DNA of 29,931 bases from a virus (Duplodnaviria; Caudoviricetes): IMG/VR virus record IMGVR_UViG_3300033446_000004, positions 1 through 29,931 of that record. The stretch is one strand, 5' to 3'. Position 1 is the first letter of the stretch. Each line of letters opens with the position of its first letter. A model generated the notes under the pieces. The model ran no database searches, had not been told where the DNA came from, and saw only the letters and a program-made list of their open reading frames with translations. The translations under genes and the position numbers were made by a program. This document shows, piece by piece, positions 3,230 through 23,196 of this stretch.

Positions 3230-3716
3230 CGAATTTATCTATTATTTGCCATAATGCAGCCTTTTCATCATCAAGTTTAACCAGCATTACTGCTAAATTT
3301 TGTAATTCATCACCTTCTTTTGTTAATTTCAATTTCGCATGCAATGTTTTCATTTCATTATTTATTCTTGATATATCAATAAAAGCCTTTTTCTTCAATA
3401 GAAAAAGGCTTTCATCGTTATTAAAATATTGTTTTTCCTTGTAAGAAAGTTCTGAGTAATTATAAATTAAGAACTTATTCGTTAAAGAATTAATTCTTAG
3501 GATATTATCCCCTTTATTTTCTTCTGTTTTAAGTTGGGATCTTCGATTATCTTTACCGATTCCGTTACTGGTTCCGTTATTGTTTCCGTCACTGGTTCCG
3601 TTATTGTTTCCGTTTCCTGTTCCGTTATTGTTTCCGTTTCCGAGGTTGTCGTTTCCGGATCTGAGGTTGTTTCTACTTTCGTTTCTGCTTCCAATATCGA
3701 AACAATCTCTTCCTTT
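3216..3716 (-). CDS. -1 frame extension of the 3497..3916 gene (track lists only 3216..3398)
   Basis: Frame read by hand is stop-free from 3722 to the stop at 3216-3218, with no ATG upstream of 3398; opens at the A10G run. Confidence 0.6.
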   Translation of the reverse strand, partial: KGRDCFDIGSRNESRNNLRSGNDNLGNGNNNGTGNGNNNGTSDGNNNGTSNGIGKDNRRSQLKTEENKGDNILRINSLTNKFLIYNYSELSYKEKQYFNNDESLFLLKKKAFIDISRINNEMKTLHAKLKLTKEGDELQNLAVMLVKLDDEKAALWQIIDKFDEVI

Positions 3717-7945: not shown

Positions 7946-8428
7946 TTAACTGGTTGTGTTTGTAAATGAGTATATTAGCTTGCATTTTTCAATATATCTT
8001 GTAAATTTTCGGTAAAATGATTCTAATTTCAAATCATCTTCTGAAATATTATGAATTTTAAAGAATTTTATAATTGCTTCTTTCCTTTGTTCACCTGAAA
8101 GTAATTTGTCTTTTGTGAAAATATAAAAAGCAAACATAATATCAGATTTAATTTGTTTTCTGAACTCTATTGCAGAGTTTCTAGCAATTTTATTATAAAA
8201 ATCTACATTTTTTATTTGATTATATCTTAATTTTATTTTAACAGAATTTTCTTTAAATATTTTTTCATTTACAATATCATATCTATTTGATATTAAATTT
8301 ATCAAAAGTCTATTATACTCATGTTTCCTTGAAAATTCAAGAGGTTCACATTTATTCTGCGAAATAGAAATTAAATATTTTTTTACCCACGGCTGAATAT
8401 TTATTTTAATGCTAATTGGCGATGCCAT
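7946..8428 (-). CDS. Basic hypothetical protein, possible late transcription regulator
   Basis: 160 aa, Lys/Arg-rich, HTH-like C-terminus; upstream TATTTTTG (8450-8457) matches the Bacteroidota -7 element. Confidence 0.5.
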   Translation of the reverse strand: MASPISIKINIQPWVKKYLISISQNKCEPLEFSRKHEYNRLLINLISNRYDIVNEKIFKENSVKIKLRYNQIKNVDFYNKIARNSAIEFRKQIKSDIMFAFYIFTKDKLLSGEQRKEAIIKFFKIHNISEDDLKLESFYRKFTRYIEKCKLIYSFTNTTS

Positions 8429-8554
8429 AATATTTAGTATTTATTTCCACAAAAATATAACTAAATATTTGGGATATACAACATTAAACCAAAAAGATAT
8501 TAAAAAGATAGTAACAATTTATTAATTTATATATTAAAAAGAACATTTAAAATA

Positions 8555-8785
8555 TTAAATGTTCTTTTTGAAATTAATTAAAGGAAATTTATGTTCTGAA
8601 ATTTGAAAAGTTTTAATTTTTTCAAAAGTAATATGATCATAAATAGTCCTTCTTGGCATGCCCATAATATTTGAATAATCCTTTATTGAGACCATTCCCA
8701 AAATCTCCGCACATTCGTGCATGATAACCAAAATATCCTCTTTGGGCAACTTATTTAAGTTTTCTAATTGTCTATCAGTTATCAT
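8555..8785 (-). CDS. Small HTH / excisionase-like DNA-binding protein
   Basis: VSIKDYSNIMGMPRRTIYDHI; start revised to ATG 8785 (76 aa). Confidence 0.6.
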   Translation of the reverse strand: MITDRQLENLNKLPKEDILVIMHECAEILGMVSIKDYSNIMGMPRRTIYDHITFEKIKTFQISEHKFPLINFKKNI

Positions 8786-8816
8786 AATGCACGTTTGTGT
8801 GGCGGTTATAAAATCG

Positions 8817-9221
8817 TTAGCGGTTACTGCAAATTTGATTAAATTGTTTAAAAAAACTTGTTGTTCGTTCTTTGAAAGCATCACAACTTAATTGGATAGA
8901 ATAATTATGAACACAATCACGATTTCCAATTTCAAAAGAACTATTAAAAACAGATAACCATAAATCAAAACCTTGTATTTCCGGTTTGCCGGTTTTGTTA
9001 AAATGATTGATAACTATAAAATATTTTCTATCATCTTGTTTGTAAATATCTTGGTCAAGGTAAATAGATTGTTGAGCAAGTAATTGATAATTTTCAAAAC
9101 TAATTTCGTGATAATACAAGTCAGCATTTTTGGAATAACAAAAACATTTATCAGTAGTTTTTTGAAACTTATTTTCTATCAAATTATTGATAAAATCCTG
9201 AATATCTTCTTTTGATTTCAT
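8817..9221 (-). CDS. Cassette 1 hypothetical protein
   Basis: 134 aa; TAA stop lies inside the AACCGCTAAC core. Confidence 0.8.
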   Translation of the reverse strand: MKSKEDIQDFINNLIENKFQKTTDKCFCYSKNADLYYHEISFENYQLLAQQSIYLDQDIYKQDDRKYFIVINHFNKTGKPEIQGFDLWLSVFNSSFEIGNRDCVHNYSIQLSCDAFKERTTSFFKQFNQICSNR

Positions 9222-9266
9222 ATTATAAATTATTAAATATTAATTAATTGACGAATGATAAAAAAC

Positions 9267-9406
9267 CGCTAACATATTATTGAGCGTTCAGTGCGGCTTT
9301 CTGAACTTTGATACTTTTGTGCCATTTATTGGCTTCGGTACGTTTCGATACTTTTGTGCTTTTTAGATACGAAAGCCGCACCGCCGCCAATAATTGTTCG
9401 TTAGGC
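9267..9406. repeat. attC-like site A (140 bp)
   Basis: CGCTAAC-AT-ATTATTG-A-GCG-TTCA-GTGCGGCTTTC...GAAAGCCGCAC-CGC-CGC-CAATAAT-TGTTC-GTTAGGC. Confidence 0.85.
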
Positions 9407-9853
9407 TCAATTTAGAACCCGTCCTAATTTGATAATGAAAACAGGATAGTTTGGTGCACCCAAGTTGTACATTCCTACTCCTATTTCAATACTTTTGCAT
9501 TCAACCCAAATAATAGGAGAGTTTTTACTGTAACCATTACGGAATTGAATGAAATCATAGTGAATTGGATAACGGTTTAAATCTCTTTTTACTTTTTCGA
9601 TATTTTCAGGATTTAAAATATTAAAAGGTTTTTCATTCATCGAATACTTTATAAACTTTTTAACATAAAAAAGTTTAATTTCTCTGTACTCTTCGTCTTT
9701 TTCTCCCGATTTTATCATTTCGAACCAATCTTTTTTAATAGGAAGAATTAATCTTTGAGATTTTGAAATTGTTCTTTGTATCGCACCGTCATCGGTTTTT
9801 TCCCAAAAAGCTGTTATTTTGTCTAATGGACTTTTAAAAGTTACTTTTTTCAT
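9407..9853 (-). CDS. Cassette 2: ASCH/PUA-like domain protein
   Basis: LPIKKDWFEMIKSGEKDEEYREIK...FRNGY matches the ASCH GxKxxExR motif; TGA abuts GCCTAAC. Confidence 0.8.
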   Translation of the reverse strand: MKKVTFKSPLDKITAFWEKTDDGAIQRTISKSQRLILPIKKDWFEMIKSGEKDEEYREIKLFYVKKFIKYSMNEKPFNILNPENIEKVKRDLNRYPIHYDFIQFRNGYSKNSPIIWVECKSIEIGVGMYNLGAPNYPVFIIKLGRVLN

Positions 9854-9891
9854 TTGTATTTGTATTAAACGATTAATAATAAGATTAATGA

Positions 9892-9986
9892 GCCTAACGT
9901 TAGCTTGAACGTCAGCGGGCTGATAATTTGTTGGAAATTGACTACGGCAAAAGTATGCCCGCCGTAGTCAAGCCCTGATGTTATAA
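9892..9986. repeat. attC-like site B (95 bp, divergent)
   Basis: GCCTAAC...GCTTGA-ACG-TCA-GCGGGC...GCCCGC-CGT-AG-TCAAGC...GTTATAA. Confidence 0.75.
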
Positions 9987-10325
9987 GCAACCTGAAATTA
10001 GATTATCAAAATATAAAATTTCTAATTTCCATTTTTCGATAACGCCAATTAATGCAGATTGATTAGATTTACAAAAATTGATATTCCAATTAAGCCGACT
10101 AATCCAACTTTTAAAAATATCTATTTTCAAACTTTTTTGAATACTTGCTATTTGATAATTCCATACATCAAAAATCCAATTTCCGCCCGCTGGTCTTACT
10201 TCTACTTCTTCACCTGTTATGTAAACAGGATAACCAAAAAAACCTTTAATTTCAGTATCATAATAATCACATAACCAATATTGATTTTCGTAAAATATGA
10301 TAGTTCCCTTTTTATCTTCCGCCAT
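9981..10325 (-). CDS. Cassette 3 hypothetical protein
   Basis: 114 aa; stop inside GCTTATAAC. Confidence 0.75.
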   Translation of the reverse strand: MAEDKKGTIIFYENQYWLCDYYDTEIKGFFGYPVYITGEEVEVRPAGGNWIFDVWNYQIASIQKSLKIDIFKSWISRLNWNINFCKSNQSALIGVIEKWKLEILYFDNLISGCL

Positions 10326-10346
10326 AACTAAATGATTTAAAAACGC

Positions 10347-10475
10347 TTATAACATATAACAGACCGATAATTTTTTGGGGTGCAATAACTAAGCATTTGG
10401 TTTATAATTAGAACTTTATTTTTTAAATTAAACATTTGACAGCCAAAAAACTACGGCTGTTATTGTTCGTTATAA
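10347..10475. repeat. attC-like site C (129 bp)
   Basis: TTATAAC-AT-ATAACAG-A-CCG...TTTTTTGG...CCAAAAAA...CGG-CTGTTAT-TGTTC-GTTATAA. Confidence 0.8.
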
Positions 10476-10483
10476 ACAATAAA

Positions 10484-11098
10484 TCACGACAAATAAGGAT
10501 ATAATTTATAGAGATTTATTGAATTTGGATTAGCCCAAATTTTTAGAAAAATATTACTTGAAAGCAATGTATGTAAATTAGTTATATTCCTTACATACTC
10601 AAATTTTGATAGTTTTTTTCTACATAATTCTTTTGTGATTTTTTCAGTAGCTTTTAAGGTTTCAGGTAAAACAACTTCGTGATTAACCGGACTATTAAAG
10701 ACAATATCAAATATTTGAGAATATGTATAATCAGTATTACCTGCGCCAGATGTAGCAATTCTGTAAATTTCATTGCCTTCGTTGTCTTTTTGGTCTAATA
10801 TTTTCCACATTTTATCAATATCGGAATAATATTTTGCCTGTTTTTTATTCAGTAAAAAGTATTCAATATCTTCTAAAATGTTGTCAAAAAATACGTCTAA
10901 TAATCTGAAAACGATAAAGTGTTTTTCGTTTTCATCAAGTCGATAAAACCTGAAATATCTTTCAAAAACAGTTGGTAATGAAAAACTTTTATTGTAAAAG
11001 CAAACTATTGATAGATATTCAGTTCTATTTTCAATGATTAAAGGCTTCATATCTTGCAACAAAGCATATTCTTTCATTTTTTCGATTAAATTTCCCAT
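10484..11098 (-). CDS. Cassette 4 hypothetical protein
   Basis: Start revised to ATG 11098 (204 aa); the longer track start lies inside site D. Confidence 0.75.
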   Translation of the reverse strand: MGNLIEKMKEYALLQDMKPLIIENRTEYLSIVCFYNKSFSLPTVFERYFRFYRLDENEKHFIVFRLLDVFFDNILEDIEYFLLNKKQAKYYSDIDKMWKILDQKDNEGNEIYRIATSGAGNTDYTYSQIFDIVFNSPVNHEVVLPETLKATEKITKELCRKKLSKFEYVRNITNLHTLLSSNIFLKIWANPNSINLYKLYPYLS

Positions 11099-11118
11099 GA
11101 TACGATTAAATAAAGTGT

Positions 11119-11256
11119 TTATAATATGCAATTTAGCGTTCAGTGGGCTTTCCTGAACTTGAAACATTGTACGTACTTAAAAACTTTGTACGTTATTGAT
11201 CCTTAGTAGCTTTTTGCGACAGAAAGCCCACCGCCGCAAATTGCTATTCGTTATAA
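11119..11256. repeat. attC-like site D (138 bp; left core TAAT instead of TAAC)
   Basis: TTATAAT-AT-GCAATTT-A-GCG-TTCA-GTGGGCTTTC...GAAAGCCCAC-CGC-CGC-AAATTGC-TATTC-GTTATAA. Confidence 0.85.
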
Positions 11257-11262
11257 ACAATA

Positions 11263-11727
11263 CTATTCAACTTCAATAAGATTGAATTGATATAATTCGC
11301 TAATTTCATTAATAGTATCGTCATCTATTTCTCTTAATTTTTCTCTAAATTCTTCCAGTTCGTCTACGTCTATTTCAATTTCAACAATTTCATAAAACTG
11401 ACGCATATAATCGTCTGTATATGTTGAAGTGTCGTATTCTTGCAATTCTTCATCTGTTAATTTAATTGCATCTTTCGGCTTTAACCCAAAACATTCTGCA
11501 ATTTCATTAAAACTATCCGGTTCTAATTTTCTAATATCAGATAAATCGGCACTTACAGCAAAAGGGCAATTCCATGAGTAACATTTAAAAGCATCATCTT
11601 TATCGCCAAAAATACAACCATAACCGCCATTCAAATAAGTTCCACCGACAAAACATTTTCCACATTTGACATCGTTTAATGGAATTATTTTCTCTGATTT
11701 TTTAACTTTTATATTAATTTCTTTCAT
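11263..11727 (-). CDS. Cassette 5: Cys-containing acidic hypothetical protein
   Basis: 154 aa; CGKC...C...C...CP cluster and acidic C-terminus. Confidence 0.75.
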   Translation of the reverse strand: MKEINIKVKKSEKIIPLNDVKCGKCFVGGTYLNGGYGCIFGDKDDAFKCYSWNCPFAVSADLSDIRKLEPDSFNEIAECFGLKPKDAIKLTDEELQEYDTSTYTDDYMRQFYEIVEIEIDVDELEEFREKLREIDDDTINEISELYQFNLIEVE

Positions 11728-11758
11728 AACTAAATGATTAAAAAATGTTTATAAAAAA

Positions 11759-12532
11759 TTAAAATCTTAAACTTAATTTTTCAGTTCTGCGTCGATTATA
11801 AATATCTTCTATTAATAATCTATATTGTGAAACATTATTGCAGTGTTGAAGCATAGTTGGAGCGTTTTTTAATTTTGTTAAAAATTCAGCAAATACAAAC
11901 CCTTCAATTTTCAAACAACCAATCATTGCACGAATAAAAGTAGGTCTATTAAAACCTTTGTAGTAAGGTTTTATCATCATCAATTTGTCGGCAACTTCAC
12001 ACGATTTATCAAAATTCGGCATTTTAAAATCACCACGAGAGAAAGTATTAATTTTAACCTTTACACCTTCCAGTGTTTTTTCTGTATAACCAAAATTCAT
12101 ATATTCAGTTGCCATTATAATACTTGCAGAAATTCCAAAATCTTTAAACTTTCGCATGAAGTTTCTAAATTTAATATATTCAGGCATTTTCATATCACAA
12201 TAAGCATCTAAATAATCTTCTTGTTTCCAATTTGCGGAATTTGTGTTTAAAATTTGAACTTCTTTTAATCCGTAGCCTTCAATAATTAGATAATAAATAG
12301 GCAATTGCAATTCCATTGCAGCTTTATATCTATGCTGCCCGTCGATAATCTGCAATTTTTCATTAACTAAAATTGGCGAAATAAGATAATTAACTTTCAT
12401 ACTTTCCTTTAAGCGTTTTATGTGCGCTTCATTGGGGGTTCTGTTTCCGTTCAAAAAATTGAACATTGCATAATTTGTTGTTTCTTGCACTTGTCTTGTT
12501 TTTAAAACAGTGGTGCTGATTTGATTTGTCAT
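11759..12532 (-). CDS. Cassette 6: ParB/Srx-like N-terminal domain protein
   Basis: GNR...HIKRLKESM...PILVN...IIDGQHRYKAA motif. Confidence 0.85.
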   Translation of the reverse strand: MTNQISTTVLKTRQVQETTNYAMFNFLNGNRTPNEAHIKRLKESMKVNYLISPILVNEKLQIIDGQHRYKAAMELQLPIYYLIIEGYGLKEVQILNTNSANWKQEDYLDAYCDMKMPEYIKFRNFMRKFKDFGISASIIMATEYMNFGYTEKTLEGVKVKINTFSRGDFKMPNFDKSCEVADKLMMIKPYYKGFNRPTFIRAMIGCLKIEGFVFAEFLTKLKNAPTMLQHCNNVSQYRLLIEDIYNRRRTEKLSLRF

Positions 12533-12592
12533 TTTACTTCGATTTTAAATTTAACACTATGATAATTAATAATTAACAATTGATAAAAATGC

Positions 12593-12731
12593 CACACACA
12601 TCAGGTAGAGCGTTCAGCATGGCATCTCTATTTTGATACTTTTGTACTATTAAAGAACTTTGTACGTGGTTGATACATTTGTGTTATTTACAGGCAGTTG
12701 CCACGCCGCCGCCTACCTGTGTTCGTTAGGG
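12593..12731. repeat. attC-like site F (139 bp; degenerate left core)
   Basis: CACACAC-AT-CAGGTAG-A-GCG-TTCA-GCATGGCA...TGCCACGC-CGC-CGC-CTACCTG-TGTTC-GTTAGGG. Confidence 0.85.
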
Positions 12732-13079
12732 CTTATTGATAAAATCTAAATACTCTTGTTCAGTTGCCGGAACAAATAGCTTCAAATCATAATGACTACC
12801 AAACATTGTTTCATTCGTATTTGCTTGCAAATATTCACGACCTTTCCAACTTATTAATTCCCATTCAGGTTTTACGACTTGCATTTCTGATTTTATATAA
12901 ATTGGCATATCTGAAATGCTTCTACTATCCCACCAATTTAATTTTTTAAATAAATGTGGATATTTTTCAAATTCAAAATCTATCTCATTTTCTAAAAAAA
13001 TAGTCCCTATTTTTGTTCTATTTAGTGGAAAATCCGCGATAATTTGAAAACGTGGGTTTAATAATTCTTCTATACTCAT
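12726..13079 (-). CDS. Cassette 7 hypothetical phage protein
   Basis: 117 aa; stop inside AAGCCCTAAC. Confidence 0.8.
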   Translation of the reverse strand: MSIEELLNPRFQIIADFPLNRTKIGTIFLENEIDFEFEKYPHLFKKLNWWDSRSISDMPIYIKSEMQVVKPEWELISWKGREYLQANTNETMFGSHYDLKLFVPATEQEYLDFINKP

Positions 13080-13122
13080 AATTTTAATGTAAAATGTGAT
13101 AATTAAACGATTGAAAACAAAG

Positions 13123-13154
13123 CCCTAACATACAATATAACGGTCAGTCAGGGC
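13123..13154. repeat. Half attC-like site G (left arm only)
   Basis: CCCTAAC-AT-ACAATAT-A-ACG-GTCA-GTCAGGGC fits the left-arm pattern; no complementary arm follows. Confidence 0.7.
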
Positions 13155-13155
13155 A

Positions 13156-13203
13156 TTAGCTTTGTTGATTCCCTTCTGTTAGTTTTAATTCAGATGCTTT
13201 CAT
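13156..13203 (-). pseudogene. 15-aa gene remnant MKASELKLTEGNQQS running into half-site G
   Basis: AT-rich leader similar to that at 13744-13766; ORF ends within attC-loop-like sequence. Confidence 0.4.
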
Positions 13204-13231
13204 CTTTTGTAAATTTTTTAAGTTTAATTAT

Positions 13232-13417
13232 TTAATTATTTTGTAACCATTCTATACATTCATCAAAATCGAAAAACTCTTCTATCCAAGCATCTCCCGA
13301 TGAATTATCGCATGCTATAAAATTATCTTCATCTTTGCACCAAAACAATCCTTTTGGCTTTCCTTCTTCGATAATCTCATAAATTTCTTCATTTGTTATT
13401 TCTTTAATTTCTGTCAT
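13232..13417 (-). CDS. Small acidic hypothetical phage protein
   Basis: 61 aa; ATGA overlap with the upstream gene. Confidence 0.75.
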   Translation of the reverse strand: MTEIKEITNEEIYEIIEEGKPKGLFWCKDEDNFIACDNSSGDAWIEEFFDFDECIEWLQNN

Positions 13418-13743
13418 TTTTTAAGTTTATTTTTTATAACTTTATTGTCAACTAAAATTAAATGAGAATTAGGATAACTAACCAATGCACTTGTATTATC
13501 AGGCGAATAATTATTTGCCACATAAATAGCAGCAATTAATCTCTCATCAATCGGAGTAGTATAAGTACTTGTGCCGTCATTATTTTTACGCGGTGGCATT
13601 TCGCTAACTATTTTAGCTGCTTGACAAATTTCAAGCAAGCTATATTCTAATTTTTTAGGAACTTTATTAAACATTCCTAAAACGGAATAACTTACATGTT
13701 CCCATATTAAATCATGTATTTCTATTGCTTTTTTCTCTTGCAT
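13414..13743 (-). CDS. Hypothetical protein
   Basis: Start revised to ATG 13743 (MQEKKAI, 109 aa). Confidence 0.7.
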   Translation of the reverse strand: MQEKKAIEIHDLIWEHVSYSVLGMFNKVPKKLEYSLLEICQAAKIVSEMPPRKNNDGTSTYTTPIDERLIAAIYVANNYSPDNTSALVSYPNSHLILVDNKVIKNKLKK

Positions 13744-13771
13744 TTTCTTGTAATTTTTTAAGTTTAAAAAT

Positions 13772-14005
13772 TTAATTAATTTCTTCAAATTGACAAATGT
13801 CAATTTCTTCATCTTCAATTATATATTCAACATCAAAATCTGTAACCTTTACAATAGCATTTGATCGAATAAATTCTTTTCTTTCTTTTATAGACATGGC
13901 TTTAAATTTTTCAAATTCTGTATCGAAAAGTTCAAGTGAAACCTCTATTTCTCCTATATCACTTCTTTGAATATAAGGTAGAAATTCTAATCTGTATTTT
14001 TTCAT
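13772..14005 (-). CDS. Hypothetical protein
   Basis: 77 aa; TAATG coupling with the upstream gene. Confidence 0.7.
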   Translation of the reverse strand: MKKYRLEFLPYIQRSDIGEIEVSLELFDTEFEKFKAMSIKERKEFIRSNAIVKVTDFDVEYIIEDEEIDICQFEEIN

Positions 14006-14235
14006 TAATCTTTCCTCCTTTTAAATCCGGTTAAATCTGCTTTTCTTATTTTTGTAAAATCATGGTTAAATTCCAGTCCTTCTAATATTGGATATTGATA
14101 ATTCATCAATTCTTCTATATAAATTGCTTGATCTTCTGTAAGCGTTTTTTCGCCTTTCGGAAACCAAGTATCTAAAGCTAATATGTTCGTTAACCAATCA
14201 AACATTTTATCAAGTTTTTCCTCTTCGTATTTCAT
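14005..14235 (-). CDS. Hypothetical protein
   Basis: 76 aa; AT-rich leader. Confidence 0.7.
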   Translation of the reverse strand: MKYEEEKLDKMFDWLTNILALDTWFPKGEKTLTEDQAIYIEELMNYQYPILEGLEFNHDFTKIRKADLTGFKRRKD

Positions 14236-14276
14236 ATTTTTTAAATAAAAAAAATAATTTCAGAATACCCTTTTCA

Positions 14277-14446
14277 CAGTTCCGCAGTTCCGCAGTTCCG
14301 CAGAAAAAGTTAAAAGTTCCGCACCGTTCCGCAAAATATATTGCGTTTCCGCAATAGAGTAAAATACATAAATACATAATAATCAAATAAATAAATAATA
14401 ATAATAATATAAAATATAGCTTGCGGAACTGCGGAACTAGCGGAAC
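14277..14446. repeat. Iteron cluster, putative replication origin
   Basis: GTTCCGCA at 14279, 14287, 14295, 14316, 14326 (plus TTTCCGCA 14346); ~68 bp AT-rich spacer; inverted GCGGAAC copies at 14423, 14431, 14440. Confidence 0.75.
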
Positions 14447-14557
14447 GATTTTTTCCTAAAATATTTTTATTTTTTTTGTTCTTTTGCATATTCCGTAAAT
14501 GCTTAAATATTAAATACATAATAAAATTTTAAAATTTGATGATTTTTGTAAAAATGG

Positions 14558-22044: not shown

Positions 22045-23196
22045 ATGGCAAAACCTACAATTTTTATCGATACTGTGAGACCTAAGGTTGATAAAACCTG
22101 CTCCCTCTATTTAAGATTATACCTTAATGGTAGTTATTTACAAATCGCTTTGGAAATGTCAGAGTTCCCCGAAAACTTCAACAAAGAAACTTTTCAAATT
22201 TCGGGCAAAGGCTGTAAAGAAAAGAATCTTTTAATAAATAGAGCTATTGGGCAGGCTTCCGATATTTTGCTAAAATACCAAGTTCATAATAAAACTTTGA
22301 CAAAAGATTTATTTATTGCAGAATTTTCAAATCCTGCAATTTTTACTGATTTTTACGCTTTTATGTACTCACAAATAAAAATCAGACAAGGCGAAATTAC
22401 AGATACTTCAATAAAAGCACAGCTTTCAGTGTTGAATAATTTGAAAACTTATAGAAAAGAACTTTTACTTGCCGAAATTAACGAAGATTTTTTGCGAGAA
22501 TATCAAAAGTATTTGGTTAAAAAGCTTAAAATGATGCCCGCAACTGTAAATAATCAGTTTAAAACGATAAAAGTTTATGTTAACAAAGCCCGAAGATTGA
22601 AATTAATTGAGATTGATCCATTTCAATTCATTAAAATGAAGCCTGTTAACCAAATTCCTGAATTTTTGACAATTGAGGAAAGAACAAATTTGATAAACCT
22701 TTATTACAGTCATAAACTTCTTGATAATTATAGAAATGTTTTGCGCTGGTTTCTTTTTTCTTGCTTTACAGGTTTGAGAATAAGCGATTTGCGACTTGTT
22801 ACACATGAACAAATTACAAACGGAATCCTTTCATTTCATCCGTTTAAAACTTTGAATGTAAACAATAATAAAGTTTACATTCCTCTTTCAAAAACCGCAT
22901 TATTGCTAATAAAAGAAGAATCTTCTCGGAAATCGGGACTTCTATTTTCGTGTATTTCTGAAGCACGAATGAACCTATATATAAAAGAGGTATGCAAAGT
23001 TGCAAAAATAAATAGGAAAATTTCTTTTCATGCCGCCAGGCATACTTTTGCAACTATATTTTTGCAAAAATCGAAAAATGCAAATGGCATTATAATTTTA
23101 CAAAAACTGCTTGGGCATAAAAAACTAGAGAGCACTTTGAAGTACTCTCACGTTTTAGACTCTGACATTAAAAATGCCATAGATGAGTTCGATTAA
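22045..23196 (+). CDS. int: Tyrosine integrase
   Basis: TGLRISD, HAARHTF, LLGH, catalytic Y in LKYSH; N-terminal arm-binding-like region; stop overlaps the convergent gene at TTAA 23193-23196. Confidence 0.95.
   Translation: MAKPTIFIDTVRPKVDKTCSLYLRLYLNGSYLQIALEMSEFPENFNKETFQISGKGCKEKNLLINRAIGQASDILLKYQVHNKTLTKDLFIAEFSNPAIFTDFYAFMYSQIKIRQGEITDTSIKAQLSVLNNLKTYRKELLLAEINEDFLREYQKYLVKKLKMMPATVNNQFKTIKVYVNKARRLKLIEIDPFQFIKMKPVNQIPEFLTIEERTNLINLYYSHKLLDNYRNVLRWFLFSCFTGLRISDLRLVTHEQITNGILSFHPFKTLNVNNNKVYIPLSKTALLLIKEESSRKSGLLFSCISEARMNLYIKEVCKVAKINRKISFHAARHTFATIFLQKSKNANGIIILQKLLGHKKLESTLKYSHVLDSDIKNAIDEFD

Follow-up and report, generated by a model that had tools for sequence, protein, structure and literature searches.

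The subject of this analysis is an array of small genes and hairpins at positions 8798 to 13154 of a phage contig, the 29,931-nucleotide IMG/VR record IMGVR_UViG_3300033446_000004, which at its full length is called the window here. We conclude, with a probability of roughly 0.8, that mobile cassettes of one gene each make up this region, an array that is still live although partly decayed and that works like an integron array with its genes turned round. Read along the + strand, each cassette starts with TT at a G|TT core, continues through a − strand gene to a complementary core, and closes with a hairpin body that runs to the next G. In every cassette the hairpin thus stands ahead of the gene, and the genes are inverted relative to the textbook attC arrangement. 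Cassette 1 is present in some natural populations and absent in others, and both of its ends fall within 7 bases that include the core. The same family of sites also serves bacterial-type arrays in which genes run in the canonical direction. The elements of the array are as follows (X3-X6 denote sequencing runs that hold part of the region, and L-numbers, used below, denote loci in other metagenome or viral contigs):

8798..8816, + strand: array entry point, a half-site whose last base is the G of G|TT, with no left arm; the empty form joins here.
8817..9400, + strand: cassette 1, 584 bp, comprising core, inverted gene, matching core and the body of site A.
8817..9221, − strand: cassette 1 gene, 134 amino acids (aa), no family.
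9264..9409, + strand: site A, an attC-like hairpin whose top strand is +.
9401..9980, + strand: cassette 2 with site B; in X6 it has different left and right neighbours.
9407..9853, − strand: cassette 2 gene, 148 aa, phrog_625, a phage family of wide occurrence.
9889..9988, + strand: site B, a short site with an extra A at +10.
9981..10469, + strand: cassette 3, with gene 9981-10325 (−, 114 aa, no family) and site C 10345-10478.
10470..11250, + strand: cassette 4, with gene 10484-11098 (−, 204 aa) and site D 11116-11259, in which AAC has become AAT.
11251..11755, + strand: cassette 5, truncated, with gene 11263-11727 (−, 154 aa, no family); the core at 11746 matches and the hairpin body is lost.
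11756..12725, + strand: cassette 6, decayed, with ParB-like gene 11759-12532 (−, phrog_12305) and site F 12590-12734.
12726..13154, + strand: cassette 7, with gene 12726-13079 (−, 117 aa, no family), a matching core at 13120 and the left half of site G.

A preliminary description of this DNA had noted that short core sequences match across each gene rather than across each palindrome, and this pattern holds. All 12 cores that it quoted were found at their coordinates. Counting the six bases beyond the fixed GTTA/TAAC in the six cassettes that have two cores, 35 of 36 bases are complementary across the gene, versus 15 of 30 across five palindromes. Only 2 of the 720 pairings of left and right cores reach 35/36, the second being a swap of cassettes 4 and 5, which have a common core. 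Complementary cores of the R'/R'' kind expected around an attC cassette thus flank six of the seven genes.

The layout of the genes was likewise described correctly. All seven are co-oriented on the − strand, the distance from core to ATG is 17-57 bases (leaders of ~18-60 bp had been claimed), and stop codons lie in a core (genes ending at 8817, 9407, 9981 and 12726) or 3-5 bases from one (10484 and 11263). The claimed alternation of genes with palindromes stands in part: five palindromes are whole (sites A, B, C, D and F), but the remaining sites are incomplete, with a core only at 11746, a left half at 13120-13154, and no left arm at 8798-8816. In addition, AAC is mutated in sites D and F; in cassette 6, TAAC has become ACAC and the ParB-like gene lacks a left core that matches. 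An intact core is present in a contig from X6 and in L078. Damage to the array grows from the 8816 end toward the 13154 end.

Sites A, B, C and D fold better than 200 of 200 shuffled sequences on both strands (z from −3.2 to −5.3), and site F folds weakly (z of −2.1 on the − strand and −0.9 on the + strand). Moreover, the left arm on the + strand carries an extra A at +10, ten bases past AAC, in all six sites that retain this arm (A, B, C, D, F and G). An extra base of this kind marks the R'' arm of attC, and sites A-D, with F as a weak case, accordingly have the form of an imperfect palindrome with an extra base that folds as a single strand. The base pair preceding the extra base lies 12 bases from GTT, or 11 in site B, a spacing that exceeds that of canonical attC sites. 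By our own site criteria, five whole sites occur within 3.5 kb, where at least two close attC sites without an integrase define a cluster of attC sites lacking integron integrases (CALIN).

Natural variation reveals how a cassette is gained or lost. The region is present in part in 10 runs, of which four (X3-X6, from two studies) were compared as contigs at a likeness threshold of 88%, with the two possible source runs left out. Both studies contribute an empty form: X3 and X5, which come from different studies, each have a contig in which 8813 is followed directly by 9398. These contigs lack the 584 bases in between, are otherwise identical to the window, and extend 255 letters on the short side of the joint. 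The bases lost in this empty form are gene 8817-9221 and site A, the hairpin upstream of that gene. The joint is ambiguous by 7 bases, which fit either side and contain G|TT, and the distance from G8816 to G9400 is 584. A contig from X4 spans 8629-9297 without differences and represents the filled form. The cassette 1 protein occurs on contigs of up to 29931 bases, and the other six proteins are also found on a contig of 34257 bases, which fits an assembly of the empty form. Gain or loss at G|TT, with the site body moving along, is thereby observed in two of the four runs, and an empty form that lacks exactly one cassette bears out the proposal that cassettes are mobile and open at their GTT cores. 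Another GTT lies four bases ahead of the core, and it was rejected as the crossover point because the empty joint starts after it. Contigs from X5 and X6 share the same loose end before 8832, within the 3' end of the cassette 1 gene.

The preliminary description proposed both gain and reordering of cassettes; the empty form establishes gain or loss, and reordering is only suggested, by a single run. In X6, the start of cassette 2 is preceded by a D-type right arm (a joint of 11246 to 9397), and a second contig matches the window at 9836-9984 and then diverges for 1045 letters. Together these two contigs indicate that, in X6, cassette 2 and its site B sit between different neighbours. It is unlikely that the X6 joint derives from a circle of cassettes 2-4, as the bins of cassettes 3 and 4 are not covered in this run, which is weak evidence.

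The same genomic position was found in three related phages (L096, L097 and L098) that share one conserved gene with the window:

7946..8428, − strand: conserved phage gene, 160 aa, which marks the locus in relatives.

The seven array genes lie between the primase region and this gene, and the array entry point is 31 bases upstream of a native gene at 8555-8785. In L096 and L098, no cassette sites were found up to the primase by a detector of low sensitivity, which recovers two (A and C) of the five sites in the window; genes there are tightly packed, with no space for sites. L097 holds six inverted cassettes at this locus, five with core pairs of 9/9 and one with 8 bases (by eye), none of which is related to a window cassette, and its last cassette in gene direction likewise has no hairpin after it. 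When relatives were compared, as had been proposed, cassette content at the locus proved to be wholly different; together with the empty form, this result runs against the outcomes that the preliminary description had named as refuting it. The L097 cargo includes a cytosine methylase and an Acb2/Tad1-like protein (3287-3547; 29.4 bits, with a cut-off of 27). This hairpin protein resides in an inverted cassette, while the canonical array L082 carries SMODS with SLATT.

These findings bear on the possibility that the region is a static relic, namely a block that was captured once and has been losing genes by homologous or microhomology recombination, with no dedicated recombinase. Such a history would fit with the broken distal sites, with the 7 identical bases at the empty joint, and with the lack of a recombinase nearby. 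However, left of 8816 there is no hairpin body available for recombination, and every cassette has its own complementary core pair. Cassette 2 in X6 has other neighbours and breaks at cores, an unrelated set of cassettes occupies the same place in L097, and the cargo is phage-like and inverted, unlike that of the bacterial arrays described below. We consider a static relic unlikely.

A metagenome scan for A-, D- and F-type sites yielded 26 loci, which were reduced to 19 by removing the window itself (3), chance matches (3) and an overlapping duplicate (1). The A-type sites in these loci have about 86-91% identity to site A. In 15 of the 19, genes run in the canonical direction and the cargo is bacterial, including SMODS with SLATT, TIR, AIPR, restriction nucleases, AbiEii, TonB and sensor genes. 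Genes are inverted in the other four, where the cargo is phage-like and includes orphan methylases and PAPS reductase. A matching GTT core was found one cassette upstream of the left core for 14 of the 19 testable sites (13 at 9/9 and one at 8/9), a count made without a shuffle control. Two loci (L081 and L089) have A-type and shorter sites within one array. One shorter site type occurs in 56 viral loci with 55 distinct sites. By a crude rule that takes the nearest open reading frame of at least 60 aa on each flank, both nearest genes are inverted at 40 of these 55 sites, 9 are mixed, 6 have a single, inverted flank, and none has both genes canonical. A pattern scan of viral contigs gave 63 loci that were all judged on reading to be chance and were dropped; a genome scan gave one match, also chance, and a second viral scan gave none. 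As side observations, an Avd-like gene and a reverse transcriptase stand directly before an A-type site (L094:334-2481), suggesting a diversity-generating retroelement in a cassette, and the Rfam motif DUF805b lies just past a GTT core in both a canonical array (L084:4136-4168) and an inverted one (L097:3227-3264).

Four features indicate which strand of the window corresponds to the top strand of the sites. First, the unit that is lost comprises gene 8817-9221 and the upstream site A, which makes + the top strand and the genes inverted. Second, the extra A at +10 is on the + strand in all six left arms. Third, in L069 a group II intron (recognized by Rfam and by its maturase) starts on the opposite strand, and its first bases fall exactly within the left core of a site of type A (2328-2345). 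According to passages of PMC3001079, attC is entered by group IIC-attC introns on its bottom strand, the one opposite to the cassette genes, and thus the position of the L069 intron also supports + as the top strand. A similar, less clean intron is present on the bottom strand in L084 (1560-1575). Fourth, the L097 array likewise ends, in gene direction, with a cassette that no hairpin follows. With this assignment, all seven genes are on the strand opposite to the one on which a gene upstream of its attC should lie. The end bases of site B look reversed, and the idea that B is an inverted site was rejected on the basis of its extra A at +10 and the X6 contig.

An ordinary CALIN of textbook polarity, with every attC placed after the gene to which it belongs, with − as the top strand and with a host IntI at work, is very unlikely in light of these data. 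Its stop codons would lie in or near TAAC cores, as they do here and in canonical cassettes. Phage CALINs have also been published, including one from a Polaribacter phage for which IntI1 recombined one of the two sites tested (passages of PMC9892861). However, the hairpin that is lost with gene 8817-9221 is the upstream one, which refutes this arrangement unless the contig joint is wrong. Similarly, site B remains with gene 9407-9853 where gene 9981-10325 is absent, near-identical sites accompany the opposite gene direction in 15 of the 19 loci, and the L069 intron marks the strand.

We find it just as hard to believe that the palindromes act as repeats or at the RNA level, for instance as terminators, processing sites or promoter modules, and ease shuffling of early genes without site-specific recombination. 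The palindromes do lie between co-oriented early genes and fold well, and site B contains two terminator-like stems, but signals of this kind are unable to explain the core match across genes or the occurrence of both site orientations relative to genes. No Rfam match was obtained for 8000-14500 at E values up to 1. Likewise, no sites from five other loci matched Rfam, and the Flavo-1 motif was not confirmed. Scans for promoters (sigma-70 model; 47 vs 39) and terminators (4 vs 2.2) were at chance level. On the + strand, sites A and F each contain two copies of TAnnTTTG (9312 and 9349; 12637 and 12674), which we take to be the −7 promoter box of Bacteroidota, with no −33 box at the usual spacing. 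In bacterial arrays these motifs could drive the next cassette, and in the phage an antisense RNA.

The window encodes one tyrosine recombinase:

22045..23196, + strand: integrase of the phage itself, of the arm-binding type and not an integron integrase; unlikely to act on the cassettes.

This protein scores 39.9 bits against the integron integrase model TIGR02249 (cut-off 265), and related phages without arrays have integrases of like size (391-392 aa frame). That it moves the cassettes, as the sole tyrosine recombinase in the window might, is the least credible alternative of all, since it is of the arm-binding type, is 24% identical to the recombinase of L133, and has counterparts of similar frame in relatives that have no array. 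In L133, a 276-aa recombinase adjoins an array; the corresponding gene is cut in L135 and split in L143. The best solved match of the L133 protein is IntI4 (PDB 2a3v), and it scores 166 bits against TIGR02249. It has 27 residues where IntI4 has 69, making it ~42 residues shorter in the I2 region, and hence this candidate, whose link to the window is presumed, lacks the I2 insertion of the integrase of a complete integron. We lean slightly toward the view that a short tyrosine recombinase of the IntI-like kind, lacking the I2 insertion, acts on the array in trans and comes either from the host or from a co-infecting phage. A perfect inverted repeat (L133:4547-4640) lies between the recombinase and the first cassette and ends in the first GTT core, and is a candidate entry site.

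Taken together, the array is real and mobile and works like an integron array, but differs from one in two defining respects: no IntI lies in the window and the genes are inverted. In calling it an established footprint of integron cassettes, the preliminary description went too far, given these two differences and an arm geometry unlike that of attC.

The following mechanism would account for these observations. The − strand, which is the coding strand of the genes, may fold and serve as the recombining strand. A recombinase would cut the folded − strand at the core and join it to another site or to the 8816 half-site, such that cassettes move together with their hairpins. New cassettes probably enter at the 8816 end and decay toward 13154, as suggested by cassette 1 being intact, polymorphic and equipped with the most host-like site. 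The half-site at 8798..8816 may be what is left of the right arm of a short site, or else a target similar to attI or attG; it has no recognisable partner arm, and one weak look-alike right arm in L090 is at about chance level. The array is likely read by the early operon of the phage, a view based on the co-orientation of its genes with early genes and on their short AT-rich leaders. In integrons, the choice of the bottom strand sets cassette orientation (passages of PMC8946536). If this holds here, phage cassettes would face away from the promoter of a host array, and the reverse, so that either kind, once placed in the other's array, would stay silent unless it brought a promoter with it.

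Several points weigh against this reading. The lowest-energy fold of site B differs from the long hairpin, and the terminal cores of A, C, D and F are not paired in register at lowest energy. The evidence for mobility comes from contigs at 88% likeness and not from reads, the crossover is located only to within 7 bases, and on one side of the X6 joint there are just 61 letters. The contigs showed no circle junction, and no window cassette gene with its ends turned up in an unrelated genome. No cognate recombinase was found in the window, in the overlapping L067 or in the 19 A/D/F-type loci, the window's own record being about 65% complete; only 3 of the 56 viral loci have a recombinase within 5 kb, all of the shorter site type. 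Lastly, the labelling of the 19 loci as host or phage is based on cargo alone.

The window represents a 29.9-kb virus record whose completeness is estimated at ~65%, such that the whole phage would extend beyond it. The phage encodes a head protease, a DnaG fusion of primase-helicase size and an arm-binding integrase, and is temperate. Its host is probably a member of the Bacteroidota, as indicated by the type of integrase, the Flavobacterium phage matches of the ParB-like gene and the cargo of related arrays. Among annotated phage records the sole match was a weak one to the ParB-like gene, in 10 Flavobacterium phage records, and plasmid records gave none. Searches for the locus with single proteins returned no close relatives, or only the overlapping L067, which ends short of the array, and no RNA dataset is listed as holding the region. 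Between the primase and the small early genes, at 14280-14350 and 14420-14450, the unit TTCCGCA recurs in short repeats, in both its forward and its reverse-complement form, and these are possibly a replication origin.

Six of the seven cassette genes have no family in Pfam or NCBIfam, and none of the seven belongs to an interbacterial immunity family. An Atlas search gave leads only, for cassettes 1 and 4, and the cassette 5 protein has 15 unnamed relatives. The cassette 2 family, presumably ASCH-like, has 529 matches in phages and no solved structure was found for it. The best 80 of 528 matches fall at 71 distinct viral loci, and only one of these has a perfect core pair, where shuffles gave a mean of 0.09 and a maximum of 2. 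Cassette 2 therefore looks like an ordinary phage gene packed into a cassette, with packing as the presumed direction. Several relatives of its protein (P0005, P0007, P0019, P0030 and P0045) have short N-terminal extensions that may stem from read-through of a site. In cassette 4, an in-frame ATG at 11167 falls within site D, and an L081 cassette ending near 530 similarly has an in-frame ATG within a D-type site. The leaders before the ATG of cassettes 3 and 5 (10326-10344 and 11728-11745) are nearly alike, and their genes are unrelated.

Bacteroidota are listed among integron carriers in passages of PMC8618304, and chromosomal integrons are described as stores of defence systems in parts of 10.1101/2024.07.02.601686. 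The present array shares with sedentary chromosomal integrons (IntI4, PDB 2a3v) its cassette-specific GTT/AAC cores, a folded site with an extra base, the G|TT cut, group II introns in sites and, in the bacterial arrays, defence cargo. Unlike those integrons, it has no IntI in cis, its hairpin precedes the gene, and the candidate enzyme lacks I2. The layout of group IIC-attC introns (passages of PMC3001079) is also seen in L069, in an A-like site, and no such intron is present in the window. A further resemblance is to rAID-1 of Bacteroidales, which Ross et al. (10.1101/471110) describe as low-GC, co-oriented genes parted by repeats "reminiscent of integrons" and associated with a XerD-family recombinase. 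This likeness is one of description, and rAID-1 is chromosomal, has its XerD-like recombinase (over 44% identical to the one in B. fragilis) at the 5' end and carries interbacterial immunity genes, whereas no short recombinase adjoins the array reported here. An unrelated motif was also once proposed as an unusual attC (passages of PMC5737381).

The closest published counterparts are 17 phage-borne CALINs, one of them in Polaribacter phage P12002L; across the study, IntI1 recombined five of six tested sites (Qi et al. 2023, passages of PMC9892861). These have attC-like sites, single genes and no integron integrase in common with the window, and orphan methylases in common with its relatives. 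They differ in that the genes here are inverted, presence and absence at the core occur naturally, and near-identical sites are found in bacterial-type arrays; divergent sites are reported for P12002L, and the main-text passages of that source do not mention systematic inversion. A literature search, with most subscription papers outside its scope, returned no inverted phage cassettes that share sites with Bacteroidota arrays. New here are the natural filled/empty pair at the core and the use of near-identical sites in both orientations.

We tentatively suggest, as a possibility we would put at somewhat below even, that Bacteroidota and their phages share one cassette system, separate from IntI integrons and worked by an I2-less recombinase. 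Ordinary phage genes would be packed in reverse with the site that the host itself uses, hosts would stock defence genes and phages counter-defence and other early genes, and polarity would silence each pool in the array of the other. If this is true, the window captures an insertion that happened recently and offers a way to test how cassettes are made. Site A is ~90% identical to sites of bacterial-type arrays yet its cargo is phage-like, and the cassette 2 family is mostly an ordinary phage gene. How new cassettes arise and obtain their site, and whether I2 is needed to recombine folded single-strand sites, thereby become testable, and such arrays may be places to seek counter-defence genes, given the orphan methylases and the Acb2/Tad1-like protein of relatives. 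Phage CALINs have so far been read as bacterial cassettes that are carried along, whereas here the phage appears to use the same kind of site for genes of its own, in reverse.

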